Virus record (IMG/VR): IMGVR_UViG_3300033075_001233
Span: 1 to 64,000 of that record
Source: a virus
Lineage: Duplodnaviria; Heunggongvirae; Uroviricota; Caudoviricetes
Length of the DNA stretch: 64,000 nucleotides
Direction: 5' to 3' (one strand)
Shown here: positions 9,990 through 60,000 of the stretch, in pieces
Layout: each line of letters starts with the position of its first letter
Position numbering within the stretch: the stretch's first letter is position 1
Notes under the pieces: generated by a model
What the model saw: only the letters and a program-made list of their open reading frames with translations
Told to the model about the DNA's origin: nothing
Database searches by the model: none
Translations under genes and position numbers: made by a program

Positions 9990-10258
9990 GTTAATAATAA
10001 GGGGAGTGTACCCCCATCCACAAATTCAAGCGGGGGTGTTGAGTTAGAAGTGGACATTACTCCCCTATATATTTCACGAAAAAAAATTTTAGAAAAAAAA
10101 TTTTGATTCTTATTTCCTTGATTTTCAAAATAATAGGCTGCCAATTTCTACAGATGCCACAAAAATTTGAAAATAAATGTAAAAATATTTGGAAAATGTA
10201 CATTTCGGATGTATCTTTACACTGTTAAAACATTAAAAACAATAAAAAATAAAAAACA
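9990..10258. promoter_or_regulatory. divergent intergenic control region between the leftward and rightward gene blocks
   Basis: 269 bp without an ORF. It contains the tandem direct repeat GAAAAAAAATTTTAG / GAAAAAAAATTTTGA at 10078-10108, GGGG...CCCC hairpins at 10000-10045, and A/T-rich TTTG-containing tracts. Confidence 0.4.
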
Positions 10259-43800: not shown

Positions 43801-44444
43801 ATGAAATGAGTCTTCAGGATAGACGTAATAGAATAACTTCACAAGGAAGAGCTTCTCGTCAATATTTATCAGACAATGCAGGTGCTCAAGCTGTATTAGC
43901 TGCTGAAGAATACAATGCAATTGGTGGTGTAGATGCCGAAGAGTTCAGAATTAATCAACAAATATCTAATGATATTGTAAATAAAAACAAAGCTTTGTTA
44001 AATGAAGCTCAAGGCAAGAATTTACAACTTGCTGATCAACAATATGTTAGACAATCTACAGCTAGAAGTAAAACAAAAGCTACAAATCAAGCTATTTTGA
44101 ATTCTGTATCCTCCAAACTTCTTCAGAATAAACTTGAAAATTCAATACTTCAGGTGTATGAAAATCTATATCCTCATTTTAGATATAATGATCAATATCA
44201 ACTGAAGAAAGAAGGTAATCCCGGTCAGGACTATCTTAATACTGCTGGTCTTCAACCCTTATCTACTAATACAAATACAGCAGTAAAAACTAAAAGAGAT
44301 GCTTCTGGTACAGTGTTATCCATTGAAGAAAACAATCCCGGATGGCTTAAAACCCAGAAGGATATGGAAGAACTTACTAGATATAAAAACAGATCAATTT
44401 CACAAATTTTAAATTCCAAGAAAGCTAACCTCTGGGAAAAATAA
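40899..44444 (+). CDS. internal virion or ejection protein with SLT lytic-transglycosylase domain, 1181 aa
   Basis: SNEGGETGVNPPIKGNASGKYALMPATQ aligns to the Slt catalytic region ESAFNPMARSPVGASGLMQIMPGTA, and ...AIGSWYNP aligns to the AYNAG motif. TAATG overlap with the upstream gene. Confidence 0.65.
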   Translation: MAKKYKSKKLKKVQQGDTLPMKFADTQAVDPDSMSEMIDEISISKLPKIPLNPRVKKVSNDLRPQGMLKPIDLNSKIAAIGEGRDLSHPTALATPKNKKPLNWSNIATTTLAAVDMLIPEERPEWPVVQPTNSYNQYQYGTGSQAIAKHGVTISKTGYSKNSKDKNKSKLRIPSNNITMEDVEFPILGKGSDGTTVVMQPGENYIFPNAEYVDETPVMQQGGNVKKPQTKIVYTDSKFVKLTPPKKKQQEPLKKEPIIVDDKNDPRLRAYNDSLLISGNKIPPEVKKYNLNYKGVDKTQNVNNYKSKNGIAPMYVNHWSKQMSQNVNDDLIDVWSGVYKKPVQPVIYQEEKKLEKPSAIPRQALDFSTGNRPQVGQQNLPQPYEWDNTKPTKYSFSYPTGKYNEQKTVYFPDAGTWKQFIGSQKLINSDEGQGYGTATGYMQKGGKMTANKGLSIEDNKFTPISDKTLMINGNSHEDGGTFVQYGDNVVEAEKGEPLSINMKGEAVIFGNMKNPITGNKFKKDAEMIAKKEKKVGKLMDYSTSIVNNVDPFDKWGSLKFNAAKMMMMGAKKKEKELMSAKEHLGDLQDALLSINEEQTIARNGKTIKAQDGSILEARRHRSKSNKQTNIYTTIANIPEIKNLSESDKEILLTSLDFNYDFFNDGTNAKGDGENLTFRNKKLINPSKMNPQLLKVYNKAAAIADKHYGIHTDPYEIKSEKQSTFDFYNTDAKKLDPDKFLSAIYSNEGGETGVNPPIKGNASGKYALMPATQQDMYNKYYKSKMSWDAFKKSYDTDATFEYEVAKALAIEKINQYKTAAEAIGSWYNPKSVKDKKWDEVPFPEYGNKISIRQYVDKAANNYFNGKNSASPTSIYKSEPAKVSKSEIRPTNLQDVQFSKFQQSPIKSENNRQVGDYQYNWNLETPKDIPVESDAKGLDFQQVMGEVYAGATNREDPVWLQQYNPELFQDYEMSLQDRRNRITSQGRASRQYLSDNAGAQAVLAAEEYNAIGGVDAEEFRINQQISNDIVNKNKALLNEAQGKNLQLADQQYVRQSTARSKTKATNQAILNSVSSKLLQNKLENSILQVYENLYPHFRYNDQYQLKKEGNPGQDYLNTAGLQPLSTNTNTAVKTKRDASGTVLSIEENNPGWLKTQKDMEELTRYKNRSISQILNSKKANLWEK

Positions 44445-44497: not shown

Positions 44498-46984
44498 ATG
44501 AGTTCATTTACAGACGAAATACCTCAATTTACACCATATGTTCAACAACAACCCATAGATGCTATGGCAAGGGTTGGTATGCAAAGGGAGGCTGAATTTG
44601 AGAAAGGTATTCAGACAGTTCAAGGATACTACGATGCATTGTTAAATCTCCCTATAGCTAAAGGTGTCACTCAGGAATATGTAAAATCCAAAGTGGGACA
44701 ATTAAATAATGCTGTAAAGCAGAGCGTTTCTGGAGATTTCTCAGATCATAGGCTTATTAATCAGATTGGTGGGCTTGCCTCACAAATATCTAATGACCCC
44801 ATTGTAGAAAATGGAATACAATCTACAGCTAGAATTCAAGCAGGAATGACCAAAATGAAGGCTGATCAGGAAAGAGCGTTGAAAGAAGGTAAAAATCCTA
44901 TACAGAACATAGAGTGGTATAATAACAAAGTGAACGAGTTCCTTGGAGATAATGACGTAAAGACCTCATTCTCAACAGATTATACACCATATGTAGATAA
45001 GCAGGAAAGGTTTCAGAAAATACTGAAAGATGTACATCCTGATGCTATCCTTACACAAGGAGATATGAATGCTCTTTCAAGGATACAAAATGGAGAATCT
45101 GTACCTAATGAAATTCTCCAAGAATTGGGTAAAAAAGGTATAGATGCTGGTAAGATACAGAATATCATTAACTTAGTGGAGGCCCAACCTGATGTCCAAC
45201 AACAAAATAGGATAGATGGTTGGTATAGATTTAGAGGATTAGATGCTACCCAAATGGGTGAATATCTTACAAAATCTACAAATTCATATATCAAAATGTA
45301 TGAAGATGCTATTACTAATCTTGGTTTGCAGAAAGCAACAGATGCGTCTGTAAATCCTGCTGATATTGACAAATCCATAAAACTCTATAAAGAACAATAC
45401 ACTAAACTTGTAGAAAAATATAACGCTACAATTGGTAAATTGGAGAAAGACCCAGAGGGAGTAAAAGCCGATCTGGTCACTGAAGAATTTGCAAATGATA
45501 TTATAGGTGCTTTTTCTTATAGCGAAACAGAATCCAAATGGATAGAAAATCCTCTTTGGAATCAAATGGATAAAGAGAGAAAATATCAATTAGATTTATA
45601 CAAACAGAAATATCAGGAAACAAAAGATAAAGAAGCCACTGAACCAATTGCTGTAGAAGGATATGTAAATGAGGATCAGGGAAAAGCTGGTGAAGGAACA
45701 ATGTTAGAAATGCAAAGTACTACACAAGCTAAATACAATGCTTTACATAGTAGATTTTCAAATTCTATAGCAGCATCTATAGGTATGAAAGAACCATTTA
45801 AAGAAGTAGATGGTCAATGGGTATATAATGTTGGATCAGGGGGCTATGCCTCACAAAAAGAAGCAATGGATGCAGTATCTAAAGTGATGCAATCCGTGGA
45901 ACAAGCTAAAACAACAGGTATTCCTCAAGCTCAAACCGCAGATTATATTAAATATGTTCTTCCTGTAGCAGATGAACTCGATCAGATAAATCAAACTATT
46001 ATTTCTTTAAATAATAAGTTTAAACCTCAAATAGAGAAAATAATTGAAAAGATTGGAGATGAGGATTTGGCCGCATACTACATTGTAAAAAATCAATTAC
46101 CGGGATGGCAAGCATATGAAAAAAAATTACAAGTAAAGTATAATGTTAATGATTATTCATATTTTCATAAAATGGGATTAAACACCCCAGAAGGAGCAGA
46201 AAGGTATGCAAAAGCATACAGAGCAGTTAATCCTGATATTTTATCTGTATTAGCTGCAAAAGAAAAAGCATTTAAAGATGTACAATCTACATTTGTAAAT
46301 AAATCGTTTTCTCTTCCATCTAATGAACCTAAATTAGCTAAACAAAATGCTACTTTATTCTCTACAATTTTAGGGGTTTATACAGATGCGTCACAATCAG
46401 CAGGTGATAAAACAGATTACGGAGAATTACAAGCATGGCTTGCTGATAAAGATGTTGATAAAAATCAGTATGAATTCAGATATGACAATAATAAAAAACA
46501 AGGATATATAGGTATTCGTAGAGGTAATAAATTTAGAGAAGTAAGCATTAAAGATAGTCACTATATGTCTATTCCCGGAGCAAATATAAATAATGAATTT
46601 TGGAGTAGATATGGTAGTAGATTACAAGTAAGTGGAGATAAGACTACTGGAACATTTGATTTCTCAAAGCCTGAAACTACGGACGTAAGGCAAACAGGTA
46701 TATCATCAGCTCTACCTGTAAAGTCTAGGACTATGAATAACAAATATATAGTGAAACATCATCTTGAAAAAAGTATAGATGATAAATACTATATAAAAGT
46801 ATGGATACAAGAGAAAACGCCTAGCGGTTTAAAACTTGTAACTTCTCCAGAAGGACAATATTTTGATCCAATTGGTGAAGGTAGCTATAACCGAGCACAA
46901 ATTTTGAAAACAATAGACGATGTTTTATCAGATGACCAATCTGTATTAGGATATTTAAAACAATTAAATCCGAATTATAAGTAA
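44498..46984 (+). CDS. hypothetical virion or cargo protein, 828 aa
   Basis: Large ORF between the SLT protein and the giant ORF. Confidence 0.5.
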   Translation: MSSFTDEIPQFTPYVQQQPIDAMARVGMQREAEFEKGIQTVQGYYDALLNLPIAKGVTQEYVKSKVGQLNNAVKQSVSGDFSDHRLINQIGGLASQISNDPIVENGIQSTARIQAGMTKMKADQERALKEGKNPIQNIEWYNNKVNEFLGDNDVKTSFSTDYTPYVDKQERFQKILKDVHPDAILTQGDMNALSRIQNGESVPNEILQELGKKGIDAGKIQNIINLVEAQPDVQQQNRIDGWYRFRGLDATQMGEYLTKSTNSYIKMYEDAITNLGLQKATDASVNPADIDKSIKLYKEQYTKLVEKYNATIGKLEKDPEGVKADLVTEEFANDIIGAFSYSETESKWIENPLWNQMDKERKYQLDLYKQKYQETKDKEATEPIAVEGYVNEDQGKAGEGTMLEMQSTTQAKYNALHSRFSNSIAASIGMKEPFKEVDGQWVYNVGSGGYASQKEAMDAVSKVMQSVEQAKTTGIPQAQTADYIKYVLPVADELDQINQTIISLNNKFKPQIEKIIEKIGDEDLAAYYIVKNQLPGWQAYEKKLQVKYNVNDYSYFHKMGLNTPEGAERYAKAYRAVNPDILSVLAAKEKAFKDVQSTFVNKSFSLPSNEPKLAKQNATLFSTILGVYTDASQSAGDKTDYGELQAWLADKDVDKNQYEFRYDNNKKQGYIGIRRGNKFREVSIKDSHYMSIPGANINNEFWSRYGSRLQVSGDKTTGTFDFSKPETTDVRQTGISSALPVKSRTMNNKYIVKHHLEKSIDDKYYIKVWIQEKTPSGLKLVTSPEGQYFDPIGEGSYNRAQILKTIDDVLSDDQSVLGYLKQLNPNYK

Positions 46985-49900
46985 TGCCTGAAGATCAATT
47001 ACCAAATATAAATAGTCCATTAGAGGACAAATTGGCAAGTATACAAAACGATTGGACAAAATCACAATTTTCTGGAAATGGAAACTCTCAAGGAGGCGAT
47101 CCTACATCAACTCTCTTAAAAAAGATGAATGGTGTAATGTCTGCTAAAGAGTCATATAGCATCCCAGATATTGTATCTCCTAATGTAGTAGACGTATCAG
47201 GAAGATATCCTAAACAATTAGTAGGTTGGGATAATGAAGACCTTTATGGAGATGCTCAATCTGGATGGAGCCAAGCTTGGAGAGGTGTTGTAAAGGGAGT
47301 AGCTCTTGCAGGAACTACCTTCTTACAAGGTACTTTAGGATTGGTATATGGATTAGGTGCAGCAGCCGGAACAGGTGAATTGAATAAATTGTTTAATAAT
47401 GATTTTTCAAATGCTATAGATGATTTCAATAAAACGCTCGAAAATCAATACTTACAGAATTATTACACTAAAAGAGAAAGAGATGCTAAATGGTATGAAC
47501 CAGCTAATCTTTTTTCTACAAATTTTATTTTTGATAAATTTGTAAAAAACCTTGGATTTTCTATAGGTGCTATATATTCAGGTGCTGTTGTAGCAAAAGC
47601 CCTTAGAATGGTTCCAGCAATAAGTTCTCTATTTACAGGCGAAAAAGCTGCTGCTACATTAGCTCAAATAGAAAGTAAATTGTCTACTGTTCCTGCATTA
47701 CAGAGAACAGATGAGATGTATAATATGCTTATAAAAGCATCCGATGCTGCTACAAAAGCTGCTAAATTTGGATCAGGCGTAGAAAGAACAGTGATAGGTA
47801 CATTAGGTGCTGTAACAGAAGGTGGTATAGAAGCCCTTCAAGGACTCAATGAGTATAGAAATTCTTTAATAGATAACTATATAGCTACCAATGGTGTAGC
47901 TCCGGTAGGAGACGAACTTGATAAAATCAATGATTTATCCAGTAGTTTAGGTAATAGTAGATTTCTTCTTAATATTGGATTATTGTCTGCTACCAACTAT
48001 ATAATGCTTCCTAAAATATTAGGATCATCTTATAAAACTTCTAAATCTCTTGCAAATAGAGAGATAAATAATATTGTAAAAAATCAAGAAGGTAAATGGG
48101 TAAGTGCATTATCTCAAGCTCCAAGAGTTGAAAAATTTATTAGAAAATCTACAAATGTTGCAGAACTCTTTTTCTCTCCTACAGAAGGATTTGAAGAACT
48201 TTCTCAATATGCAATTGAGCGTGGTGTAAATGATTATTACTCAAAGGCTTATAAAGGTGAAGGTAGAAGTTTTGCAAACTCTATGCTTGCAGGATACGAC
48301 CAAGCTATAAACAGTAATGAAGGAATGGAACAGTTCCTGCTTGGTGCTTTATCTGGTGGTATGCAACAAGCAGGGATTGTAGGTACATATCAAAATGAAA
48401 AAGGACAAACTAAGGTAGTTATTGGTAAATCAGGTAATATAGGTGAGCGTGGTATTACAGGAACAGGCGGAGAACGTGGTAGAAACACAACATCATTTCT
48501 TGCTCAAATGAATGATCCTAAAAATCAGATGAGATTTAAATCTGATACTTGGGTGAAAGACATGGTAGATGCTACAGCAAGGGGTATAAATCTGCAAAAA
48601 GAAGGTGAAGCTTTTATTCGTCAAGGTGATGTTCTTGAAGCAAAAGATAACGAAGCAGATTACATGCATAACTATCTTGCTGTTCGTATTAAACACGGTA
48701 GATATGATTTAGTGCAGGATGATATAGATAATTTTAAACAACAGGCTTCTACTGACGAAGGACTTAATGTGCTGAAACAACAAGGGTATGCTAATGAGAA
48801 TGATACTCGACAGACATTCCTTGCTCGTGTCAATAACTTTGAAAAACATGCTAAAAACATAGATTCTCTGCATCAATCACTTAATATGGTGTATGGTGCA
48901 AAGATTAACCAAGACGGACAGCGTGTATATTCAGATGAAGTAATTGATAAGATGGTGTATGTTGGCTCAAAAATAGCTGACTATGAACAGCGTATTCCTG
49001 AATTATCTCAACAACTACTTAGTAATCAAATAGTTCTAGGAGATGCATTGAGTAATATCTATAAAAATGGAGTTCCTTCTGCTGATGCTGTAAAAGATGC
49101 TATCAAACAGATAGATGATCTTAGTGTAATTGATAGTAAGAAGGATGAGCTTAAACAATCTCTCCGTGATGTAATAGAATTAACAGGTAGAAGAAAAGAA
49201 TTTCTTGATGAATTTAAAAAACTTAAAACCTCTCCTGAGTCTTTTACTGCTACAGAACCTACTACTGCCGTAGCTACCACTGACAAAAAGAAGATTAAAC
49301 TCAAAACAAAAGATGGTGAAGAAGAACTGGAAATAGGCACTGATTACTATCTTGGTAAAGTGGTTGAGAAAGATAAAGATGGAAACGAAGTGTATCGTTT
49401 TCCTCAAATCACTATTGTAGGGGAAAATGAAGATGGAACAATCAAAGTAAAAACCTCTACAGGGCTTATAAAAGATATAAATCCCTCAGTATTAGAGGAT
49501 TATAAACTTGGAAAAGTATCTGATCTTCAGAATAATAAGAAAGCTAAATTCTATTTTGATCATATTAATGATGTCGTAGAATTCAATTTTGGAAAAGGTA
49601 AAAAACAAAGAGGCAGACTTCAATTCTCTCCTAAAGAGGGAGTGCTGAATTTTGTATATAAAGATGCTAAAGGTAAGATAAGATCAATAGAAGTAACAGG
49701 TGATCAGTTTGTCCCCAAAAAAGGATATACTAATCCTATGATTTCTTTTGTTCGTACTCTTACACCGCAAGAACAATCAGATATAGACAATCTAGCTAAA
49801 GAAGTAGATGCTCGTATTGAAGCAAAACGTGAGGCTAGACTTAAAATCATCTCTGAACTCAGAGAAGCTGCTTATGGTAGGCTTGATAAATTAACAGATA

Positions 49901-52900
49901 AGATTTCTCAAAAGAGAGATCAACTTGAAGGAGTTGAGAAAAACCTTAAAGAACTCGAAGAAAAGCTTCAAAAAGATGACAATTTCCGTAAAGATGGAAA
50001 AGGATTCAAAAAAGCTGGTAAAGAGGTAATCCGTCAGTTGAATATTCTGAGTGGAATGAGAACCCTTTTGAGTAGAGAAATAGAAGAACTCACTGCTGAA
50101 CAAGAAGAGGTTGAATTTAACATATCCTATTTTGAGGATATGGGTCAAAATATTGATGAACTTCCTACAGATAGTAAAGACTTCATAGAAGAACTTAATA
50201 ATCAAGTGCTTGATCTTCAGATACTTCATGAAGAAACAGGTAAACAAATCAATTACTTATCTGGTATATTGAGTAAGGTGGAAGATGCATTAAAAACAGC
50301 AGTTGATTTTGCTCTCAATCTTATTCAAAAATTTGAGAAAAAATATCCCGGATTACCTGTAGCACCTGAATCTCTTAGAAGTTTCTTAAATAAGGATTTA
50401 GAATTCAAAGGAACATGGCCTGATTATCAATCATATCTTGCCACTAATCCTAATCTTTTATCTGATTTACAACAATTTGATAGAGAGTTAGCAGATATTG
50501 ATGAGTTAGATGTTACTCCTAATGAGCGTTCTGTACAAGAACTTAAAGATAATATCGCAAATCTTAATAAAGACCTTGCTCAATATGAGAAAGAAATAAA
50601 AGCAAAATCTGCAATTCTTGATAAATTTGAGGATATAGCTAATGAGTATAAACGTAGAGAAGCGGCTAAACGTCAATATGAGCAGGATAAAGTGCTCCAT
50701 GACGCATTGTTTAAAGCTCAATCTCAATTAGTTGAACAGCCGTCAGATGATAGTACAGATGACGAAATTGCTAAAATAGAAACAAAAGATAAAGAAGCTT
50801 CTAAAAAGAAAGACCTTTCTATCTATCCTATTTCTACAATAGCACCATCAAGGGAAACTGATCCTGAATTTGAGAATAAACCTCATCTTTTAAGAGAGGA
50901 AAAATTTTTAAATAATTACGCTGCTTGTCTTCTTAAAGATGAAAATGGTAATGATATTACTCCTGATTTAAGAGTGCTTGTTATACATAGAAATAATCAA
51001 GCAAAATATGGACTTGACGGACTTGTAGAATTACGTAATCCCAAACAAGCTGATGAATCAGAAGAAGCATATGATAAAAGACTTACAAATGCTGAAAATG
51101 GAACAATTCTTTATTTATACATAAAGAAAGGTGAAGGTGAATGGGAAGTAATAGATGAAAATGGTAAGAAAATAGGAAGCTTTGATAACGAGTTTAATCC
51201 TTCAGGAATTGATATAAATAAGGTGGTAACATCTACAGCTCCGGCAGCTAAAATATCACTTAAAGCAGGATCATTCACTAATAAAGATAATCTTAATTTA
51301 GCTGAAATTGAAAAAGCTTGGCTTGAAAAAAGAAAACAATTATTAGAAGAGGGTGATTTACTCACTGTATCAGGAGTATCTCGTGGCGTAAAACAAGTAA
51401 CAAGTACATCCGATAAGAATCCTATTACCCCCACTCTAACAGATTCAAAAACAGTTGATAAACAGCAAGTTATATTTGTATCTACTTCGGATGTAATTAA
51501 TACACCTAATGATACTATATATTATAAAGCAGGTAGACCCTATTTCCAAATAGGAGATAACGTTATTCTTTTAAATAATAGAAACATTAATGAAAAAGAA
51601 GCAGATGCTATATTTTTAGTATTAAAAGAAGTAGCTACTAAATTCCAAGAATCAATCAAAGCAAATCGTCCTAATCTGGATAAGCAATTAGTCGATTGGT
51701 TAAATTCTATAATCTATTGGTATAGCCCATCTGAGAAAAATCCTACAGCACACAACCATCAGATTTATGTAAAATCTGGTAAATTATTCATATCCGGTGT
51801 AGACACTGGTATATATTTCAATCCTGATAGCTTAGAAGCTAATAGGAAACCTATTATCGAAACATTCCTTAAAGGAAATACCGCAGGACGGGGTACATAT
51901 CACCATGTATCTCATAAGAACTTATCCTCAGATCAGCCCTATATTGAGTACTACACTGAAGACGGTAAAACCTTAAAAACCAGAGAACATAAATCATATC
52001 AGCATTATCTGATCGCTAATAATGTAGTGTCTACAAATGTAAGACCTCAAATGAGCGATACGGATAGCAACATTCGTGGTAGATATGCTATCACTGATAT
52101 GGAACTCTCTCTTCCTAAAGAGGATGTTAAACCTCCCAAAGTTGAAAAAAAGGAAGCAGTACAATCCTCTGGAAAACCTGATAAACTTGCAGAAGCAATG
52201 GCTGCTCTTGCCACTAATAAAGCTAGTAAACAAGGTGGTAATAAAGAACAACCTAAAGCAGGTAGTGTTGGTGTAGGGGGAGAGGTTAGGAGTGTTAATG
52301 ATTTTGCAAATGAGAATGAATCATATAGGGTTATAGTAGGGGATGAAGCGTTTAATGATATAGTAGAAAGTGGAACGGTTAGAACTAACGCAGGAAACAA
52401 GGGAGGGGAAAGTTTATCAGACAAACTAAAAAATCGCCCAACCCTATTCCCGTCTTTCAGCAAAGGGAAAGCGTCTATGGAGTATGCGGCTGAAAACCCA
52501 AACAACTATATAATAGTCACAGAAGATGCAAGCATACAACCATCAAAAGCCGGAAGGCATGGCAAGGGAACGACAATGTTCCCAACTGATGAAAATGGTA
52601 ATCATTTAAAAGAATTAAGCGGTGAAAAAGTAAAAGTGTATAAGCATATTGGGGAAGGTCAATATGTATTAGTTTATGCTAACGGAAAGGTTGTAGAACA
52701 ATCCATCAAAGAACAACCCAAAGCTTCTGTTGCTACACCAGTAATGTCTAAAGGATTAAAACCTACAGATAATGTAAAAGCTAGTATAAAAATTGACGAT
52801 CTTCTTAATAAATTTAAAGATCAAGGTATTACAGGGGATATTTCCAATGATGAAGAATATAGAAGAATTGTAGAAAAGAGTATAGATAATGTAAAAAAAG

Positions 52901-55900
52901 AAGATATTACTGCTGTAAAAGCGTGGTTTGCTAAAAATCTTCCGAATGTACCTCTCAATATTGTAGAGCATATCCTTAAAACTACAGATGGTGGTTTTGC
53001 TTGGGGTAAGTTTTCAAGTGTGGGTGTTACAATGTATGAAAAAGCAAAAGAGGGTACAGGATACCACGAAGCATTTGAAGCAGTATGGAAAATGTTTATA
53101 CCTGTTGAAGATAAACAGAAAATAACATCTGAAATGAGACGTAGGAAAGGCTCATTCTATGATGTTATTACTGGTCAAAATACGGAATATAAATCAGCTA
53201 CAGATACACAATTAAAGGAAAAACTGGCAGATGAATTTGCAGAATACGTGCAAACAAATGGTGCTATTTCTGAAAAAATAAAAGGTCAACCTTGGATAAT
53301 CAGAATATTCAGGGCTTTAAAAGAACTTTTTGAAAAACTTATTTCTCCACAAAACAATATAGATCAATTATTTAAGAATATAAATAGTGGTCAATATGCT
53401 ACAAAACCAGTTAATTTGGAATCAGTGGTGGGGGATGAATATAGTAGGGTGGCGGATTTATCACATCAGCTTACAAAAGAACTGATGGAAGATATTACAT
53501 CAAAGATTTTAAATAATTTCTTTGGTGCTAATGCTACATTATCTTTAGCTAATTTATCAGATAATAAGGAAATACCCCTTGATGCTTATTATGATGCTAT
53601 TAAACCAATGCTACTTAATAGATTAATGTCATTAGCAAATATTTCACTTGGGAAAGGTGAAGAAGAACTTGCTCTTAATTATCTTACTATTTTAGATAAT
53701 GTAAATGATAATTGGGAAGATGTTGTCAAATTAAATAAAGAATATTTAAAAACATTTGGTCTTACAAGCAGTCATGAACAAGCCTCTGATAATCTTCCTG
53801 AAAAGGTGAAAGAAGCAAAACAGGCTGAATTTGAAGATGATAATGATGGTATTCAAGATGATGATGAACCTGAATTTGAACAGGAGAATAAATCTCAATT
53901 AGAATATGATAGGGATATATTTACAATTTCTGGTAAGAAAAACGCTTCTGCCGGAATAAGGTTATTATTTGCTACACTTAGGGATGCTAAATTTATTCGT
54001 CAGTCTAAAGATGATGTGTCCGTAATTCCAGCTATAGAATTTGAAAGATCATCACTTAATGGATTCAAATTTGTGCAATATGCAAGAGTATTCAATCAAG
54101 TAGCAAACGCATTAGTTAATACTAATAAGATGGAAAATCTTATTAAAAAGCTTGTCAACCATGCTAAAACAAATGCTCCTATTGTAGACCTTTTAAGTCC
54201 TAATAAATTAAATATAAATAGAACAACAGGTAAAATAAATTACAATTCATTATCATATAATGAATGGAGAATACTCTTGGATTTTGTAAAAACCATGAGT
54301 AAACAATCCCCTACTGCCCTCATATATGATATGAAAGGTAATACAGCCAAGCTTATTCCCGGTAATAAATATTCAGGAATTGAACAAATTAAGAGGAATT
54401 TTGTAAAGAATGTAAAAAATAACAAAGAGTTGTTCTCTTTTGATAAAAAGAAAAAGACATTTGTTGTCAATCCTGAATTCTTTAAAAAGAACCCAACACC
54501 AACCAATGACAAAGCATATATAGATTTTGCAAATTCTATAGGTATTAAAACTGTAGACGGTGAATTATTATCGCTGGCTATGTTAAAAGCTATGCCTTTA
54601 TTTCAAAAAGCAAAATTCAAAAGTGCTTTATCTAGGGTGTATACTCAATTAAAAAAACAAGACCCTTTATTTGATACATCAAATAAGGCATTACAGATTG
54701 AAACTCCTCTGAATGAAATAAGTATTGCTATCATTTCCGCAACAAAAGATGACGGTTCTAACACCTTCTTAAACGTACTGAGAAAACCAGTACAGTCAGT
54801 GGTGTTGAATAACCCTCTGTCTACTTTCTTTAATAATTTTAATTCTGTTTCCTCCCTTGACGATCTACAAAAAGAGGAGCAAGGACTTACCGATGGATTT
54901 TCTAAAAATTCAGTGATATTACAAAGAGGTGGTAAATTCTTTAACGAAGATGGTGATCGTACAGATGAGAAGATTGAAGTGGGATATATTGACGGTATAA
55001 AAACTCCAAGAAACTCTAAACAATCTTCTAAATTATCCCTTATTCAAAGAAGACTCCTTTCTTTCAATCTTAATTTACAAGGTTGGTTTGTTCCTATTAC
55101 CAATGGTGATAAGAAAACAGAATGGGTATTATCTTTAGGTAATCATATATCCTTCAATCAAGTAGTTGCTGGAACACATTGGGATTCAATATATTCTACA
55201 TTCCATAACTATCTGAAAACAGAAATGGAAGTAGCGCAAGTAGATGATGCTAATACACTATCTGTTCTGGATAAACAAAAAAGGCGTGGAAATCTTAGGT
55301 TTTTCCTTAATATTCTTCCTGAAAATATTACAAAAAAAGCAAAAGTTGTAATAGATAATCTCGGGGATATTGATGAATTTATTGAAGAAAATGAGAAAAA
55401 CATCAATAGCGCAATACGTAAATTCCTAGAAAAAGAAGCCAGTAGAACACGTACAGAATTCCAAATATATAATATATTATCAGCAGATGATAATGGAAAT
55501 TATATATTTGATGGAATTGATGAGAAATTCGTAATGGATAACATCAACGATCAAGGTGTAAATAAATTCAGCGAAGAGCAAGTTGATAATGTAATTCTCT
55601 ATAGAACTGTTAATCAGGTGATTAACAATATAGAAATGCATAAACTTGTTATTGGTGATCCTGCATTTATGTCCGATCCTGCAAAACGTATTCCCGGAGC
55701 AATGGGTGGTATAAATCAGACTACCTACGGATCACATGAATTTAATACGCATTTTTCAACATTAGCAAATAGAACTGATGTTAATTCTAGCTCAATACAA
55801 TTAGAACCTACTGATTTAGGATATACTCCTTTCTCAGATGATGTTTCTATTGTAATATATCAAGACGTTATCGTAGAAGGTAGGGTAGAAGGTAGTGATT

Positions 55901-58900
55901 ATAAGAACACAAATGAGGTGGATGGTGGCTCAAAAATGAACCTTTCTGCATATAGAGAATTGAAAATGAGATCAGCAGAATGGACCGATGAACAGGAAAA
56001 ACAATATCAATATCAAATGGCATTCTTCAGAGATAGAATGTCAAAACAGGGAAAATATGACTATTCTTCAAAAGAATTAAAAGAACATGACGTTAACCTT
56101 TTAAAACAAGGTCAGCCTCAAGAAGGTATTTTTGAAATTATCAAACCTAAAGGATGGGGTCAGAATACAGCATCTCCATATAAAGATATAGTGTTCCTGA
56201 AAACATCAGCTCAACCTATTATCCCCACTGTAGCAAAAGACACAAACGATGAACTCCTTCTTCTGAAAATGATGAATGAAGGTATAAAAATTGCAGCTTT
56301 TGAATCAGCAGTAAAAGTAGGGGTACGTAGCACTGAACCAGCATATGTAGATGGTAAATTTAACGAAAATAAATACAACCCTGATGCAATACTCTATCCT
56401 TCTTGGAAAGATTTAGGTATTCAGGTGGAAACCCAATTCTCTCAAGGTAAGAATAAACTGACATTAGGTAGTCAGCTTACAACACTCGCTACACTTAACT
56501 TGTTATCTGGCGGCGTACCTCAAGGATTTACAGCTACAGAATGGAGCAAACTTTCTGAAGAAGAAAGAATGGCAAAATCTGAAATATACAGAGAGGTAGT
56601 TACAAATAATCAGATTCTTGTAGAACTTACAAATAATGGATATGTAGAACTTCTCGATAAATTAGGAATAGAAGAAGATGAAGATGGAAATTATGAAATA
56701 GTTGATTATCAACGAGTTGTAGATTTCCTTAAAGAACAGGCTCGTGACATGGATGATAATACAAAAGCTGCTCTTAAAGTGGACGATGTATTAAATTCAT
56801 TAGCAGTACCTCTTGAGGCTATTCCTACATACACTCAGTTGAAAGCAATTCTTTATTCTATTGTAGATAAAAACATAGCATCCCCTAAAACATCAGGTAT
56901 TGGTTTAGTGCAGATGCCATCTACATTTACAGAAAATGAAGCAAGAACTACCCTTGTTGGTAATTCCACTTATAAATTCTACACTAAAGAAGAATCTTGG
57001 ATTGAGGTAAGTTTACCTGCATGGTTTAGAGATCAGCTTGAGAAATTTTATATAAATAATAAAAAACCAATTCCTTCAGAAGAAGAGTTGCTTAAATTAT
57101 TGAATGATGCTGATATATTAAATGGTATAGGTTTCCGTATCCCCACTCAGGAAATGAACTCTGTAGAGGTATTTAAAATTAAGAGTTTTCTTCCTAAAGT
57201 GATGGGTAACACTATTATTGTACCTTCAGAAATCACCACAAAAGCAGGTAGTGACTTTGACATTGATAAACTTAATGCATATCTTAAAAATGTTGTAATT
57301 ACCAAAACAGGTAAAATATCTAAAGTGGCATCATTTAATTCTCAGGAAGAAGCCGCTGATCATTTTGGAAGTGAATATGAAAACAGTATTCAAAAAGAGA
57401 TTGACAAAATTGAAAAATATGATGATTTCCGTGAAACTCTTTTAGCTGTATTCAACGCAATAGAAAATATCAAGGGTGATATTACATTAGATAAAATCAA
57501 AAAAGCACTCACTGAAGACCTGAAAGAATTCTATGATGTGCATATGACTCTTCTTAATGAAATTATAGATCAAGCTGCTGAAGAACAATTAAATCCTTCA
57601 CAATATATTCAAAATCAGATAGATAAGCTTTCCCGTAAAAAAGGAAAACTGAATGCTAAGTTATTTAATGAACTGGCTAAAGAAATGTACATTAAAAAAT
57701 ATACAAGAAAATCTCTTGAGAACGCATACTACGAATCTCTCGAAAGGCTTGTTCAGCTTCCTGAAAACTTTGAAAGGTTAATACAAATCAACACTACAAA
57801 AAATCTTGAAGAAATTAAGAATAACCTTAATAAGGCATTATTCACTGAGGATGAAATTAAACAAAACAACATCAATACAGGTGAAAAACTTGCATTGAAC
57901 TATCTTCCTATTATCTCTCCTTACACTCTTGATGAAATCAGGCATAATCTGGTTACAGGTAAGGATGGTGTTGGTATTGCTGCTGCTGCTCAAAAGAGCA
58001 ACTCAATTATGCAACGTACTCAGGTGGTGATTGATTCAAGCAGAGTAAATCTTCTTAATGATATTGATCCATTAAGAACAGAATTAATAGGTGATGGCGT
58101 TATACGTTTTCCTCATAATAAAATTAATGGAAAACCCACTATATCAATGTCTAAAACCGCAGATGGTAAGAAGTATATTTCAGATATTATTTCTGAGTAT
58201 ATTAACGGATTTGTGGACGTTGTAAAGAATACATTTATCATTGAGATGGGTGTTACCACTCGTACAGCAGGTACGTTCTTATTTATGGATAGGCTTGGTA
58301 ATAACACTGAACATACTACGTTTTTCATGAATCAGCCTATTATCAGGCAATATTTAAAATTCCTTGATGCAAATAAGATAAACCCAATTAGAAACGAAAA
58401 AACAATAAAACAAATTTATTCTATCTGGGGTAATGTTAAATATACAGGAAAAGACACGCTTCCTACAGCTAATCAATTACTGGATAATATTAAAGAATAT
58501 AAAGTAAAAAATAGGGATTTTAATAATTTATCTAAAGATTTCGTAGAAGAGCAATCTAAAATATTTAATGAATTCCTGAAATATCAGGAGATGGCATCTG
58601 ATTTATTTACCCTTATGCAGGGTATAAATTGGGATACAGCCCATATGTCTGATCCTGAACAATTCCTTCTGAAGGATGTTAAATATGATAAGGCAAATAA
58701 TACATTATTTACTCCTGCTTCAGAGATATTGAAGAATGTATTTATTGGAAATACACGCCAAAAATTGATGGATTCTAGGGATGCAATAGGTGGTTTTATA
58801 GCCATAGAACATCCTAATGTACGTGAAGTGCTGGATACATTAAAGCGTAAATTCATTAGTATGAGCTTCTTCCCTAAGCCTGATGTATATAGTGCTATTG

Positions 58901-60000
58901 CTAAACGTATAAATAACTCCTTCTTAAACTATATCTTACAGGTAAAAGGTGGATATAATAGAACTCAGATTGAGCAAGTTCTTTTGGATGAGCAAAATGG
59001 AGCAGCTTCCCTGCTTGAAGATTTACAAATTGCCACTAAAAAAGATTCTGTTTTACATTCAATTCTGAAGCAATTCTCCATTGAAAGAAGAGGTAATGAT
59101 GCTAATAGTGTGAAAGCAATTATCTTTAAGAAAAGTGGAAATGATAAATATGACAGAGATACTGATATTGACAATTTTAGAATTTTAAAAGAAAATGCAT
59201 ACACTCAGGAATTATATAAAAAACTGGTGAGAGCAGCTCTTTTACAATCTGGTGTGCAGTATTCTCCTATCTCATACTCACATTTAATACCTTCTGAAGA
59301 CTATGCAAAAGCATTATCTAGTCTTGTGAATAATCTGTCTACATACACTGATCTGGATAAATTCCTCACATCTAAATCATTTGCTAGAAACAACTGGAGC
59401 AATTCAGATGTAGCTAAACCATTGATGATCAGCGAAAAAAGAAAGGGTATATCAGATATGGGTAGAGTGTGGGCTATTCCTTTTATTCTTCCTAAACAGC
59501 TTTCTAAGTTCCCAAAAGGAGCAATAATGAAATCAACAATGTTCTTAGGAGAATACGCTAAGTATCAACCACTTAACTCAATGGGTAGAATGGTTTTTGT
59601 ACCTGATCTTACATATATGATAAATAAAAAGGATGCGTTTGAGAAAAACAATCCTATTTTAACAAAAACATATCTGTATGAACTTGTCAAGGATGAAACG
59701 GGAAAACCTCTTACAATTACAGAAAATTACAAAAATAAGAAAGATGAAGAGGTACAAAGCGTAAGTTATCTGTATAAAGCAATTAATGCTTGGGGAGACG
59801 GTATGTATGCACAAGAGTATTATGATGCTGAACGTTCTTCACAAATTGAAAACAATACATTCAAAGTGGATGAAACAGTTGTAAATGATACAGCTATTTA
59901 TACAGCATTACGTGGAAAATCTGTATCTTTACAGGATAAAAAGACAAAGACTTCTGATAATAAATCAACTCAGGATAAAATAAACGACTGTTTAGGATAA
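46984..60000 (+). CDS. giant protein, 4338 aa, with a C-terminal DPBB-RNAP-like DFDID motif (candidate virion RNA polymerase fused to a large N-terminal region)
   Basis: Uninterrupted 13-kb ORF. SDFDIDKLNAY near residue 3420 gives a DxDxD triad. The N-terminal region has a Gly-zipper hydrophobic segment GVALAGTTFLQGTLGLVYGLGAAAG and there are long coiled-coil tracts in the middle. Confidence 0.6.
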   Translation: MPEDQLPNINSPLEDKLASIQNDWTKSQFSGNGNSQGGDPTSTLLKKMNGVMSAKESYSIPDIVSPNVVDVSGRYPKQLVGWDNEDLYGDAQSGWSQAWRGVVKGVALAGTTFLQGTLGLVYGLGAAAGTGELNKLFNNDFSNAIDDFNKTLENQYLQNYYTKRERDAKWYEPANLFSTNFIFDKFVKNLGFSIGAIYSGAVVAKALRMVPAISSLFTGEKAAATLAQIESKLSTVPALQRTDEMYNMLIKASDAATKAAKFGSGVERTVIGTLGAVTEGGIEALQGLNEYRNSLIDNYIATNGVAPVGDELDKINDLSSSLGNSRFLLNIGLLSATNYIMLPKILGSSYKTSKSLANREINNIVKNQEGKWVSALSQAPRVEKFIRKSTNVAELFFSPTEGFEELSQYAIERGVNDYYSKAYKGEGRSFANSMLAGYDQAINSNEGMEQFLLGALSGGMQQAGIVGTYQNEKGQTKVVIGKSGNIGERGITGTGGERGRNTTSFLAQMNDPKNQMRFKSDTWVKDMVDATARGINLQKEGEAFIRQGDVLEAKDNEADYMHNYLAVRIKHGRYDLVQDDIDNFKQQASTDEGLNVLKQQGYANENDTRQTFLARVNNFEKHAKNIDSLHQSLNMVYGAKINQDGQRVYSDEVIDKMVYVGSKIADYEQRIPELSQQLLSNQIVLGDALSNIYKNGVPSADAVKDAIKQIDDLSVIDSKKDELKQSLRDVIELTGRRKEFLDEFKKLKTSPESFTATEPTTAVATTDKKKIKLKTKDGEEELEIGTDYYLGKVVEKDKDGNEVYRFPQITIVGENEDGTIKVKTSTGLIKDINPSVLEDYKLGKVSDLQNNKKAKFYFDHINDVVEFNFGKGKKQRGRLQFSPKEGVLNFVYKDAKGKIRSIEVTGDQFVPKKGYTNPMISFVRTLTPQEQSDIDNLAKEVDARIEAKREARLKIISELREAAYGRLDKLTDKISQKRDQLEGVEKNLKELEEKLQKDDNFRKDGKGFKKAGKEVIRQLNILSGMRTLLSREIEELTAEQEEVEFNISYFEDMGQNIDELPTDSKDFIEELNNQVLDLQILHEETGKQINYLSGILSKVEDALKTAVDFALNLIQKFEKKYPGLPVAPESLRSFLNKDLEFKGTWPDYQSYLATNPNLLSDLQQFDRELADIDELDVTPNERSVQELKDNIANLNKDLAQYEKEIKAKSAILDKFEDIANEYKRREAAKRQYEQDKVLHDALFKAQSQLVEQPSDDSTDDEIAKIETKDKEASKKKDLSIYPISTIAPSRETDPEFENKPHLLREEKFLNNYAACLLKDENGNDITPDLRVLVIHRNNQAKYGLDGLVELRNPKQADESEEAYDKRLTNAENGTILYLYIKKGEGEWEVIDENGKKIGSFDNEFNPSGIDINKVVTSTAPAAKISLKAGSFTNKDNLNLAEIEKAWLEKRKQLLEEGDLLTVSGVSRGVKQVTSTSDKNPITPTLTDSKTVDKQQVIFVSTSDVINTPNDTIYYKAGRPYFQIGDNVILLNNRNINEKEADAIFLVLKEVATKFQESIKANRPNLDKQLVDWLNSIIYWYSPSEKNPTAHNHQIYVKSGKLFISGVDTGIYFNPDSLEANRKPIIETFLKGNTAGRGTYHHVSHKNLSSDQPYIEYYTEDGKTLKTREHKSYQHYLIANNVVSTNVRPQMSDTDSNIRGRYAITDMELSLPKEDVKPPKVEKKEAVQSSGKPDKLAEAMAALATNKASKQGGNKEQPKAGSVGVGGEVRSVNDFANENESYRVIVGDEAFNDIVESGTVRTNAGNKGGESLSDKLKNRPTLFPSFSKGKASMEYAAENPNNYIIVTEDASIQPSKAGRHGKGTTMFPTDENGNHLKELSGEKVKVYKHIGEGQYVLVYANGKVVEQSIKEQPKASVATPVMSKGLKPTDNVKASIKIDDLLNKFKDQGITGDISNDEEYRRIVEKSIDNVKKEDITAVKAWFAKNLPNVPLNIVEHILKTTDGGFAWGKFSSVGVTMYEKAKEGTGYHEAFEAVWKMFIPVEDKQKITSEMRRRKGSFYDVITGQNTEYKSATDTQLKEKLADEFAEYVQTNGAISEKIKGQPWIIRIFRALKELFEKLISPQNNIDQLFKNINSGQYATKPVNLESVVGDEYSRVADLSHQLTKELMEDITSKILNNFFGANATLSLANLSDNKEIPLDAYYDAIKPMLLNRLMSLANISLGKGEEELALNYLTILDNVNDNWEDVVKLNKEYLKTFGLTSSHEQASDNLPEKVKEAKQAEFEDDNDGIQDDDEPEFEQENKSQLEYDRDIFTISGKKNASAGIRLLFATLRDAKFIRQSKDDVSVIPAIEFERSSLNGFKFVQYARVFNQVANALVNTNKMENLIKKLVNHAKTNAPIVDLLSPNKLNINRTTGKINYNSLSYNEWRILLDFVKTMSKQSPTALIYDMKGNTAKLIPGNKYSGIEQIKRNFVKNVKNNKELFSFDKKKKTFVVNPEFFKKNPTPTNDKAYIDFANSIGIKTVDGELLSLAMLKAMPLFQKAKFKSALSRVYTQLKKQDPLFDTSNKALQIETPLNEISIAIISATKDDGSNTFLNVLRKPVQSVVLNNPLSTFFNNFNSVSSLDDLQKEEQGLTDGFSKNSVILQRGGKFFNEDGDRTDEKIEVGYIDGIKTPRNSKQSSKLSLIQRRLLSFNLNLQGWFVPITNGDKKTEWVLSLGNHISFNQVVAGTHWDSIYSTFHNYLKTEMEVAQVDDANTLSVLDKQKRRGNLRFFLNILPENITKKAKVVIDNLGDIDEFIEENEKNINSAIRKFLEKEASRTRTEFQIYNILSADDNGNYIFDGIDEKFVMDNINDQGVNKFSEEQVDNVILYRTVNQVINNIEMHKLVIGDPAFMSDPAKRIPGAMGGINQTTYGSHEFNTHFSTLANRTDVNSSSIQLEPTDLGYTPFSDDVSIVIYQDVIVEGRVEGSDYKNTNEVDGGSKMNLSAYRELKMRSAEWTDEQEKQYQYQMAFFRDRMSKQGKYDYSSKELKEHDVNLLKQGQPQEGIFEIIKPKGWGQNTASPYKDIVFLKTSAQPIIPTVAKDTNDELLLLKMMNEGIKIAAFESAVKVGVRSTEPAYVDGKFNENKYNPDAILYPSWKDLGIQVETQFSQGKNKLTLGSQLTTLATLNLLSGGVPQGFTATEWSKLSEEERMAKSEIYREVVTNNQILVELTNNGYVELLDKLGIEEDEDGNYEIVDYQRVVDFLKEQARDMDDNTKAALKVDDVLNSLAVPLEAIPTYTQLKAILYSIVDKNIASPKTSGIGLVQMPSTFTENEARTTLVGNSTYKFYTKEESWIEVSLPAWFRDQLEKFYINNKKPIPSEEELLKLLNDADILNGIGFRIPTQEMNSVEVFKIKSFLPKVMGNTIIVPSEITTKAGSDFDIDKLNAYLKNVVITKTGKISKVASFNSQEEAADHFGSEYENSIQKEIDKIEKYDDFRETLLAVFNAIENIKGDITLDKIKKALTEDLKEFYDVHMTLLNEIIDQAAEEQLNPSQYIQNQIDKLSRKKGKLNAKLFNELAKEMYIKKYTRKSLENAYYESLERLVQLPENFERLIQINTTKNLEEIKNNLNKALFTEDEIKQNNINTGEKLALNYLPIISPYTLDEIRHNLVTGKDGVGIAAAAQKSNSIMQRTQVVIDSSRVNLLNDIDPLRTELIGDGVIRFPHNKINGKPTISMSKTADGKKYISDIISEYINGFVDVVKNTFIIEMGVTTRTAGTFLFMDRLGNNTEHTTFFMNQPIIRQYLKFLDANKINPIRNEKTIKQIYSIWGNVKYTGKDTLPTANQLLDNIKEYKVKNRDFNNLSKDFVEEQSKIFNEFLKYQEMASDLFTLMQGINWDTAHMSDPEQFLLKDVKYDKANNTLFTPASEILKNVFIGNTRQKLMDSRDAIGGFIAIEHPNVREVLDTLKRKFISMSFFPKPDVYSAIAKRINNSFLNYILQVKGGYNRTQIEQVLLDEQNGAASLLEDLQIATKKDSVLHSILKQFSIERRGNDANSVKAIIFKKSGNDKYDRDTDIDNFRILKENAYTQELYKKLVRAALLQSGVQYSPISYSHLIPSEDYAKALSSLVNNLSTYTDLDKFLTSKSFARNNWSNSDVAKPLMISEKRKGISDMGRVWAIPFILPKQLSKFPKGAIMKSTMFLGEYAKYQPLNSMGRMVFVPDLTYMINKKDAFEKNNPILTKTYLYELVKDETGKPLTITENYKNKKDEEVQSVSYLYKAINAWGDGMYAQEYYDAERSSQIENNTFKVDETVVNDTAIYTALRGKSVSLQDKKTKTSDNKSTQDKINDCLG

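Follow-up and report, generated by a model that had tools for sequence, protein, structure and literature searches.

The stretch of DNA analysed here (the window) covers positions 1 to 64,000 of IMG/VR virus record IMGVR_UViG_3300033075_001233, and is assigned to a crAss-like phage because its capsid protein matches the Pfam family Crass_capsid (PF23898, E=6.6e-23); its terminase and portal match PHROG families. The genes are arranged in the order muzzle-like protein, two Cys-free proteins, a giant protein (the giant) and a gp49-like protein, in agreement with crAss001 gp44-gp50 and phi14:2 g071-g065, such that a polymerase gene in a Crassvirales genome adjoins other large cargo genes. The frame encoding the giant, which a sequence-only reading had described as uninterrupted over 13 kb, is indeed open from 46984 to 60000 on the + strand (4338 aa), and its ATG start overlaps the TAA stop of the preceding gene (TAATG). 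An identical protein, P0204, is encoded on a 122,240-bp JGI/IMG contig (clustered collection). The next ORF, at 60016, is homologous to crAss001 gp49 and to a 1702-aa protein of L003, and has a weak match to PDDEXK_1 (E=7e-4). A megablast of the giant ORF against GenBank phages gave no match, Pfam and PHROG scans with the complete giant, like phmmer against PDB, returned nothing, and a promoter/terminator scan gave counts equal to the shuffled expectation. The features of the locus are listed in Table 1.

Table 1. Features of the giant ORF and of the gene that follows it (nucleotide positions in the window).
Feature	Residues	Nucleotides	Strand	Basis or remark
Whole ORF	4338 aa	46984..60000	+	gp47-like cargo module and predicted virion RNA polymerase fused in frame
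Conserved N-terminal domain	about 60-850	47161..49533	+	strongest occupancy and identity in an alignment of 66 homologues
Two Gly/Ala-rich, weakly hydrophobic segments	106-124 and 186-210	47299..47613	+	sole Kyte-Doolittle peaks above 1.3 in the giant
Variable charged coiled-coil-like insert	about 851-1200	49534..50583	+	alignment occupancy 0.2-0.5, composition
Conserved middle region	about 1201-1720	50584..52143	+	alignment conservation
Variable linker	about 1721-1950	52144..52833	+	low occupancy
Zincin-like (anthrax-lethal-factor/PPEP-like) domain	about 1970-2145	52891..53418	+	HEAFE at 2028-2032 (nt 53065-53079), invariant E2079
Joint of the two modules (...TKPVNL/ESVVGDEY...)	2144/2145	53413..53418	+	split site of closest relatives
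Predicted virion RNA polymerase module	2145-4338	53416..59997	+	full-length counterpart of phi14:2 gp66 and crAss001 gp50
First double-psi beta-barrel region	about 3030-3141	56071..56406	+	invariant K3073, K3111, G3113; covered by AF2 model and Foldseek match
Connector domain	3142-3308	56407..56907	+	gp66 residues 1095-1238, HMM-based mapping
Catalytic metal-binding motif DFDID, second barrel	3424-3428	57253..57267	+	aligned with gp66 motif
Lineage-variable helical insertion after motif	about 3458-3575	57355..57708	+	low alignment occupancy
Bridge-helix equivalent	3645-3675	57916..58008	+	gp66 residues 1529-1559; coincides with long helix 696-727 of AF2 model
Trigger-loop equivalent	3731-3769	58174..58290	+	gp66 residues 1598-1636
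C-terminal cysteine C4336 (...NDCLG*)	4336	59989..59991	+	one of two Cys in 4338 aa
Next gene, gp49/gp65-like cargo protein	at least 1328 aa	60016..64000	+	runs past window end

Single-sequence searches with the polymerase part (Pfam, PHROGs, NCBIfam, phmmer against PDB) found nothing, NCBIfam on five segments of the giant gave noise only and Pfam on segments gave no credible match; the polymerase assignment is therefore based on profiles and on a comparison of folds. A profile built from residues 1950-4338 (alignment A1) matched phi14:2 gp66 (6vr4_A) with an E value of 7.1e-113, profile positions 29-1909 corresponding to chain residues 113-2042 and gp66 residue 113 to giant residue 2167, and tblastn reached the RNAP genes of phi14:2 and crAss001. 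An AF2 model of the polymerase region (pLDDT 84.1, pTM 0.83) had 6vr4_A as its top Foldseek match (E=3.3e-25, TM 0.62), followed only by two-barrel RNAPs, namely RNAP beta-prime and the phiKZ, AR9 and P23-45 polymerases, at E values above 0.05 that are not significant. Nearly all family-invariant residues are identical in gp66. The conserved lysines that the sequence-only reading expected in such an enzyme lie in the first barrel, where the invariant K3073, K3111 and G3113 correspond to gp66 K1027, K1065 and G1067, the two lysines being just upstream of the connector, the boundaries of which were mapped from those given for gp66 by Drobysheva et al. (preprint). The helical insertion is a point at which many homologues' BLAST alignments stop (residue 3457) and restart (residue 3575). 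Two barrels, connector, bridge helix and trigger loop were thus located in one chain by model, Foldseek and mapping, and residues from about 2145 to 4338 are, by sequence and structure, a full counterpart of gp66 and gp50, the two-barrel, single-chain DNA-dependent RNA polymerases. The proposal of a crAss-like virion RNAP made from the letters alone is borne out by the profile match, the motif alignment described below and the top Foldseek match, and its extent has to be revised: the suggested region of residues 2900-4338 is too short, as the module takes up all of about aa 2145-4338, and the 'about 3000 extra residues' are too many, the gp66-equivalent part being about 2200-2280 aa and the additional N-terminal part about 2050-2145 aa, close to the alternative figure of roughly 2000 given in the same reading.

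The giant contains GSDFDIDKLNAYLKN, which includes the DFDID motif. The bare DxDxD pattern is weak, with three occurrences in the giant versus 1.4 expected by chance, and a chance match was rejected on the exact alignment with the gp66 motif (D3424, D3426 and D3428 correspond to gp66 D1361, D1363 and D1365) and on the invariance of the motif in 30 aligned homologues. In the AF2 model, the DFDID loop has strands on either side and a pLDDT of about 65 (moderate confidence). The triad had been noticed near residue 3420, together with the statement that the phi14:2 enzyme uses exactly DFDID and has about 2200 residues; both points agree with the preprint, in which gp66 has 2180 aa, every Asp of DFDID is essential and D-to-A mutants are inactive (Drobysheva et al., preprint). 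Two other polymerase classes were considered and rejected: the cellular multisubunit RNAP beta-prime, of which the NADFDGD motif with Gly at position 4 is absent (Ile occupies this position, in a single chain with weak fold matches of E 0.06-0.3), and the N4-like (T7-type) polymerases, no significant sequence similarity having been found to the N4 enzyme or, equally, to P23-45 gp96.

The identity of the N-terminal module, which had been read as an ejection or channel-forming cargo protein, was established as to the cargo by homology: tblastn of this part found crAss001 gp47 (annotated 'RNA-polymerase subunit') at 1.9e-31, as well as structural proteins of phi17:2 and phi4:1, and mass spectrometry has shown gp47, gp49 and gp50 to be present in crAss001 virions, where they were placed in the capsid cargo zone. 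The stretch from residue 1 to about 2145 is accordingly, on homology, the counterpart of the gp47 virion cargo protein; a channel-forming role may be envisaged. The N-terminal domain is the one segment recognized by PHROGs, through phrog_32390, a family of unknown function (E=2.4e-19), the middle region has no Pfam, PHROG or NCBIfam match, and the profile of the whole module gave only coiled-coil noise against PDB, as did the insert at residues 851-1200, which is missing from most fused relatives of 3.7-3.9k aa. The linker is much longer in P0106, with about 590 aa between aligned blocks versus about 180 aa in the giant. Of the Gly-zipper membrane segment proposed earlier, the two Gly/Ala-rich hydrophobic stretches do exist, but their mean Kyte-Doolittle value (1.33) is under the usual transmembrane threshold, and they might at most be candidates for membrane insertion; the coiled coils proposed alongside were recovered as charged coiled-coil-like stretches at aa 931-1000 and 1221-1280.

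The GenBank label of gp47 implies a role in transcription, and the N-terminal 2100 residues could be a transcription subunit (for promoter recognition, DNA melting or processivity), the fusion then building a holoenzyme. In the loci examined, every crAss-type polymerase that was found came with homologues of gp47, gp49 and gp50 that are annotated as RNAP subunits and are either neighbours or parts of a fusion, and in the experiments described, recombinant gp66 on its own could transcribe DNA that was single-stranded or denatured. However, the N-terminal domain is present in phi17:2 and phi4:1, which belong to an Epsilon group reported to be without the transcription block, and in Leptolyngbya phage Lbo-JY46, in which no DFDxD polymerase was detected beside this domain; Pfam and NCBIfam searches detected no nucleic-acid-binding domain in the giant. 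A holoenzyme of this kind is, thus, improbable. Given that the N-terminal domain also occurs in phages in which no crAss-type polymerase was found (the Epsilon group including phi17:2, as reported, and Lbo-JY46, partly checked), the gp47-like part would have a delivery role, leading or anchoring the thread, rather than a catalytic one.

The two modules meet at a precise natural fission point. In the closest relatives (50-61% identity), they are encoded by two separate genes, split exactly at residue 2144/2145: real similarity to P0106, P0107 and P0108 stops near the joint, similarity to P0001 begins at aa 2145, and the halves are separated by seven small genes in L003. The existence of such split relatives might suggest that two genes were merged into the long ORF by an error of assembly or sequencing, or that the ORF is a decaying pseudogene. 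This possibility was rejected and has a very small probability, because the frame is open over 13 kb, all catalytic and family-invariant residues are intact, the joint is collinear in over 160 independent fused homologues, which come from many samples, and what sets the split relatives apart is added tails or leaders and a 4.6-kb gene insertion rather than a single stop codon. Forty-six fused homologues were aligned collinearly across the joint, and 120 of 139 further representatives of 50%-identity clusters measure 3400-5544 aa; metagenomic examples of this size number in the hundreds, and the fused architecture predominates in a large environmental clade. Fusions are also on record: in cr108_1, a gut crassvirus in GenBank, a gp47-like part is fused to the polymerase, a review gives a size of up to about 6000 aa for the RNAP genes, and the preprint by Drobysheva et al. 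mentions fused 'huge polyproteins' of the crAss transcription block, citing Yutin 2018. The giant is, therefore, a real but ordinary example of a fusion type common in metagenomes and already in the literature.

The gp47-like module ends in a zincin-like domain, the HMM of which matches crAss001 gp47 residues 2064-2214 (domain E=5e-41); against PDB, the profile of the domain reached only the active-site helices of FtsH/YME1, below threshold (E about 0.5). The motif in the giant is HEAFE, the second zinc-binding His of HExxH being replaced by Glu, and the domain was, for this reason, not filed as an active zincin; protease activity is doubtful, because the motif in the giant lacks this His. HExxH was found in 22 of 82 homologues and HExxE in 51, and HExxE also prevails in the second fused set (93/120). 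The variant does not track fusion, because the split proteins P0106, P0107 and P0108 have HExxE too. The domain itself moves between the three cargo proteins.

These observations bear on the possibility that the giant is a polyprotein precursor, cut near residue 2145 after translation or ejection, possibly by its own zincin-like domain, such that a gp47-like protein and a polymerase of about 2200 aa are freed and the fusion serves co-expression only. Drobysheva et al. (preprint) consider fused versions to be 'likely cleaved into individual components' and suggest that the zincin-like protease of the gene set may activate the polymerase; they describe gp66 as inhibiting itself through a segment that blocks the cleft and may be 'refolded or cleaved', and this segment is conserved in the giant at aa about 2290-2320. 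If fusions are cleaved as these authors expect, the giant would not work as a single chain inside the cell. A zincin-like domain does lie directly upstream of the natural fission point, but its second zinc-binding His is Glu in the giant and most fused homologues, the variant is shared by the split proteins, no conserved motif for cleavage could be recognized at the joint, and in phi14:2 the zincin domain is part of a different protein, gp65. A precursor of this type seems rather unlikely, although it deserves more weight than the holoenzyme. The giant is, instead, very probably a cargo protein that an uncultured crAss-like phage makes late and packages in its virion, and in which two conserved crassvirus proteins are joined by a peptide bond.

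The cargo proteins are nearly devoid of cysteine (about 0.03% Cys outside the last six residues), and the few cysteines that they contain are found at particular ends. Fused gp47-RNAP proteins have a Cys within the last six residues in 140 of 148 cases and an N-terminal Cys in none of 147, and gp47-like proteins have one at the C-terminus only (51/56). Database entries of the 'RNAP-only' kind are mostly ORFs truncated at the N-terminus, and the N-terminal Cys can be checked in about ten complete cases; the stand-alone RNAPs judged complete (gp66, gp50, P0001, P0005, P0055, P0101, P0206, cr128_1 and cr111_1) have Cys at both ends. Gp49-like proteins have a Cys at position 3-8 in 112 of 115 cases, and in 108 this is the sole Cys. 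Cys is entirely absent from a triple fusion of 5544 aa, and the closest relatives with a split gene have Cys on both new ends. Single cysteines therefore occur only at ends that, in the series gp47, RNAP, gp49, face an adjoining protein; in the window, the 60016 ORF begins with MAC and its Cys3 faces the C-terminal Cys of the giant in gene order. This pattern suggests end-to-end disulfide linking. A plausible reading, held tentatively and a little short of even confidence, is that gp47, RNAP and gp49 of Crassvirales are always joined head to tail, by a peptide bond or by a bond between C-terminal and N-terminal Cys (most simply a disulfide, possibly a shared metal site), and are packaged and ejected as one thread, the Cys joints of which open in the reducing cytoplasm. 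C4336 of the giant would then pair with Cys3 of the gp49-like protein, and the three cargo proteins would exit the capsid as a single chain, to come apart inside the cell. No mention of the terminal-Cys pattern was found in the literature searched; the fusion is already known.

Packaging, ejection, activity and virion integrity of the giant are extrapolated from phi14:2 and crAss001. By this analogy, the giant would be made late and stored in the capsid, threaded unfolded through portal and tail at infection, and refolded in the cell, where its polymerase part would transcribe early phage genes without the host polymerase; the fusion would guarantee 1:1 co-packaging and co-delivery. The giant thus adds one more well-preserved example of an injected crassvirus two-barrel RNA polymerase, and indicates that, in environmental crassviruses, this enzyme is usually translated in one chain with a gp47-like cargo protein, which bears on the packaging and tail threading of 0.5-MDa proteins. 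There is also value for annotation, as Pfam, PHROGs and NCBIfam recognize none of the roughly 2200 residues of the polymerase. The fission point, the mobile zincin-like domain and the terminal-Cys pattern are by-products of wider interest, none of them specific to the window, and the last provides a directly testable model of cargo order and release.

Among known systems, gp66 of phi14:2 (PDB 6VR4), which is ejected and transcribes early genes (Drobysheva et al., preprint), resembles the polymerase module over nearly its whole length, with an identical DFDID and flanks (TK(A/T)GSDFDIDK), common invariant residues, connector, bridge helix and trigger loop, a C-terminal Cys and Ile at motif position 4 (Ile or Val in crAss-like RNAPs). 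Identity is about 17% over aligned columns, and gp66 is a separate protein with an N-terminal Cys3, whereas about 2145 in-frame residues come before the polymerase of the giant, which also has the extra helical insertion after the motif; the zincin domain is located in gp65 in phi14:2 and at the end of the gp47-like module here. This domain, with its invariant H-E...E, may share its sheet, active-site helix and Glu-helix topology with zincins of the anthrax lethal factor or Pro-Pro endopeptidase type (M34-like) and ArdC. The virion RNAP of coliphage N4 and P23-45 gp96 are likewise giant virion-carried polymerases ejected with the DNA for early genes, with the catalytic part inside a longer delivery or structural polypeptide; the N4 enzyme is T7-like, unlike the two-barrel giant, and gp96 is a two-barrel enzyme, but fused to the tail tape measure, with DFDGD (Foldseek E=0.07). 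Classification with the polyvalent proteins (Iyer et al., 2017) was rejected, as no effector domain was detected in the giant; its relatives carry ART-PolyVal, PDDEXK, NADAR, AlkB and helicase domains. In terms of crAss001, the giant corresponds to gp47 (N-terminal domain and terminal zincin-like domain) followed by gp50, and the next gene to gp49; in crAss001, these are three separate genes, with gp47 on the opposite strand and a canonical HEAFH instead of HEAFE. An architectural parallel is found in the 'huge polyproteins' (Yutin 2018, as cited in the preprint; cr108_1), which also unite adjacent cargo and polymerase genes in one ORF; compared with these, the giant is a fusion of two proteins, not of three, belongs to an environmental lineage with contigs of 110-130 kb and has an extra insert of about 350 aa.

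The polymerase module of the giant protein is a complete RNA polymerase of the phi14:2 type. The DxDxD motif is unremarkable by count (three copies in the giant protein versus 1.4 expected), so homology was needed to validate it. Single-sequence searches with the polymerase part (Pfam, PHROGs, NCBIfam, and phmmer against the PDB) yielded no match; with residues 3001–4338 as the query, 105 homologues were found, and S-D-F-D-I-D-K is invariant in an alignment of residues 1950–4338 with 29 homologues. The profile of this alignment matches gp66, the virion RNA polymerase of phi14:2 (PDB 6VR4), over chain residues 113–2042 (E=7.1e-113), and gp66 1361-DFDID-1365 falls exactly on residues 3424–3428 when both proteins are aligned to the profile (TKTGSDFDIDKM against TKAGSDFDIDKL). 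The same mapping places the connector (gp66 1095–1238) at 3142–3308, the bridge helix (1529–1559) at 3645–3675 and the trigger loop (1598–1636) at 3731–3769. Family-invariant residues are almost all identical in gp66, and the invariant lysines of the first barrel, K3073 and K3111, correspond to gp66 K1027 and K1065. An AlphaFold2 model of residues 2951–4050 (pLDDT 84.1, pTM 0.83) had 6vr4_A as its sole significant Foldseek match in the PDB (E=3.3e-25, TM 0.62); the other matches listed, all non-significant, were two-barrel polymerases (bacterial and eukaryotic beta-prime-type subunits, the phiKZ and AR9 non-virion RNA polymerases, and P23-45 gp96). Both profile and structure thus show the similarity around DFDID expected of the candidate virion polymerase proposed in the sequence-only reading. 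The DFDID motif ascribed there to phi14:2 is indeed that of gp66, a protein of 2180 aa in which every aspartate of the motif is essential (Drobysheva et al.). The polymerase is not, however, limited to the last 1400 residues: the gp66-equivalent region spans about residues 2145–4338, the full length of the enzyme. In the uncultured phage cr108_1 (GenBank MT774385.1), the polymerase ORF as annotated ends within the motif (...AKAGSD), and the coding sequence picks up again about 290 nt further on (LYDIDKMY...; positions 16857–17148); DFDID there appears to be interrupted by an intron or another kind of insertion.

The window is from a crAss-like phage: a 519-aa protein (21856–23412) matches Pfam Crass_capsid (6.6e-23), and the adjoining genes match the PHROG families for the large terminase (3.5e-68) and portal (6.7e-103). 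The ATG of the giant ORF overlaps the stop codon of the upstream gene (TAATG). The one identical protein on record comes from a 122,240-bp JGI/IMG metagenome contig, and megablast against GenBank phages found no DNA similar enough to the giant ORF. The closest GenBank terminase (34.6%) is that of the 125-kb Leptolyngbya phage Lbo-JY46 (PP438436.1), classified only as Caudoviricetes. This phage also encodes a homologue of the muzzle-like protein of the window and a 1552-aa gp47-like protein ending in ...EVNC; its adjacent 2748-aa protein showed no DFDxD polymerase. Lbo-JY46 may be an unrecognised crass-like relative.

The N-terminal module is gp47-like. In tblastn searches, residues 83–460 match both crAss001-type gp47, labelled 'putative RNA-polymerase subunit', and structural proteins of phi17:2 and phi4:1. 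crAss001 gp47 itself matches residues 89–678 and 1980–2148, and the crAss001 polymerase gp50 matches residues 2973–3787. The only two hydrophobic peaks (residues 106–124 and 186–210, KD 1.33) both lie within the conserved N-terminal domain.

Coordinates of the giant ORF, its regions and motifs, and the downstream ORF
Feature	Residues	Window position (nt)	Strand	Basis or detail
Giant ORF	4338 aa	46984–60000	+	ORF reading, uninterrupted
Conserved N-terminal domain	60–850			66-sequence alignment
Variable coiled-coil insert	851–1200			66-sequence alignment
Conserved middle region	1201–1720			66-sequence alignment
Variable linker	1721–1950			66-sequence alignment
Conserved junction domain	1950–2200			66-sequence alignment
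HEAFE		53065–53079		junction domain
Polymerase	2200–4338			66-sequence alignment
DFDID motif	3424–3428	57253–57267	+	within GSDFDIDKLNAYLKN
Terminal cysteine	C4336	59989–59991		
gp49-like ORF		60016–64000		runs off window
Cysteine of gp49-like ORF	Cys3	60022–60024		

The fusion of the two modules is genuine and common. With residues 1–2250 as the query, 46 proteins of more than 3400 aa (most 3669–3938) are collinear with the giant protein across the joint. An exhaustive search with residues 1951–2450 gave 653 cluster representatives at E <=0.001; of the 139 listed representatives that were new, 120 reach 3400 aa or more (median 4240, maximum 5544), and DFDID or DFDVD is present in 109 of these 120. 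The gut crassvirus cr108_1 is fused too. The closest relatives are split (P0106, P0107 and P0108, 50–61%; P0001, 52%), and their similarity ends or begins at residues 2144/2145 (...TKPVNL|ESVVGDEY...), the upstream half having a tail of 60–100 aa and the polymerase a 92-aa leader. In the closest relative, contig L003 (Logan ERR3858120_285, 5414–9997), the halves are separated by seven small genes spanning about 4.6 kb, one of which matches Pfam Gp80, at the equivalent of window positions ~53413–53418; the added tail ends in cysteine and the 92-aa leader starts with MAINC. In other homologues, the break falls upstream of the zincin-like domain. Domains of kinds characteristic of phage 'polyvalent' proteins (NADAR, AlkB-type dioxygenase, SF1 helicase, ART-PolyVal, PDDEXK (PD-(D/E)XK nuclease) and DUF7831) are appended in relatives of both modules (P0002, P0016, P0069, P0171); none was detected in the giant protein. 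In the first three, the added domains follow the polymerase on its C-terminal side, and a cysteine remains at the end of the protein.

The giant protein has two cysteines in 4338 residues, one of them in the terminal ...NDCLG. Among the first 203 homologues, cysteine makes up 0.03% of the residues before the last six, and 182 have a cysteine within the last five (chance for the last six, ~0.2%). Cysteine occurs in the last six residues of 51/56 gp47-like-only and 140/148 fused proteins, and near the N-terminus of none (0/56 and 0/147). Stand-alone polymerases judged complete have cysteines at both ends (gp66, C3 and C2179; gp50, C5 and C2404; P0001, MAINC...KKDCP; also P0005, P0055, P0101, P0206, cr128_1 and cr111_1). 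Of 115 full-length gp49-like proteins, 112 have a cysteine at position 3–8, the sole one in 108, and none has a C-terminal cysteine; the downstream ORF of the window begins MAC. P0248 (5544 aa), a triple fusion whose sequence matches first the giant protein and then the downstream ORF, lacks cysteine altogether. In this comparison, which also took in loci L001, L002, L003 and L005–L007, the number of terminal cysteines is twice the number of peptide joints missing from the chain gp47, RNA polymerase, gp49. The sequence pattern suggests that the three proteins are joined end to end, most simply by a disulfide (or shared metal site) that would rebuild the polyprotein in the virion and open in the cytoplasm. 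The crassvirus literature consulted on these proteins makes no mention of it. The two putative cargo proteins upstream (1181 aa, 40899–44444; 828 aa, 44498–46984) are cysteine-free, and tail and muzzle-type proteins are cysteine-rich (10–22 each; 36127–40899, 29354–31255 and 35263–36117).

The junction domain probably has a zincin-like fold; it carries GTGYHEAFE (H2028, E2029, E2032) and an invariant E2079. It reads HEAFH in crAss001 gp47, whereas in the giant protein the second histidine is missing, and the domain is therefore not classed as an active zincin. Among 82 homologues, 22 have HExxH and 51 HExxE. In the environmental clade most members have HExxE (93/120 fused representatives), and gut-type gp47 proteins retain HExxH; the change shows no correlation with the fused or split state. 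In phi14:2, the zincin-like domain is located in gp65 (Drobysheva et al.), where HEIMH is present at residue 245; this domain is evidently mobile among the three cargo proteins. In the gp49-like ORF, about 686 N-terminal residues, including a Walker-A-like GHPTIGKS, have no match in the L003 homologue, and residues 1039–1194 show a weak, below-cutoff match to PDDEXK_1 (E=7e-4).

crAss001 virions contain gp47, gp49 and gp50, which have been assigned to the capsid cargo zone and need partial unfolding to exit via the tail. The giant protein would likewise be expressed late, stored in the capsid and threaded through the tail, and would then refold, its polymerase part transcribing early genes. 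The chain may be cleaved at the joint. A delivery role is favoured for the gp47-like part because its N-terminal domain is also found in Lbo-JY46 and in phages of the phi17:2 type (Epsilon group), from which the transcription block is reported to be absent. The order in the window (muzzle-like 1590-aa protein, the 1181-aa and 828-aa proteins, giant ORF, large ORF) parallels gp44-gp45-gp46-gp47/gp50/gp49 in crAss001, in which the cargo proteins gp45 and gp46 hold the positions of the cysteine-free pair, and g071...g067-g066-g065 in phi14:2. Given that fusion is common and that a review already quotes RNA polymerase genes of up to ~6000 aa, the giant ORF is not a new kind of protein; it adds one more case to the fused polymerases already known.
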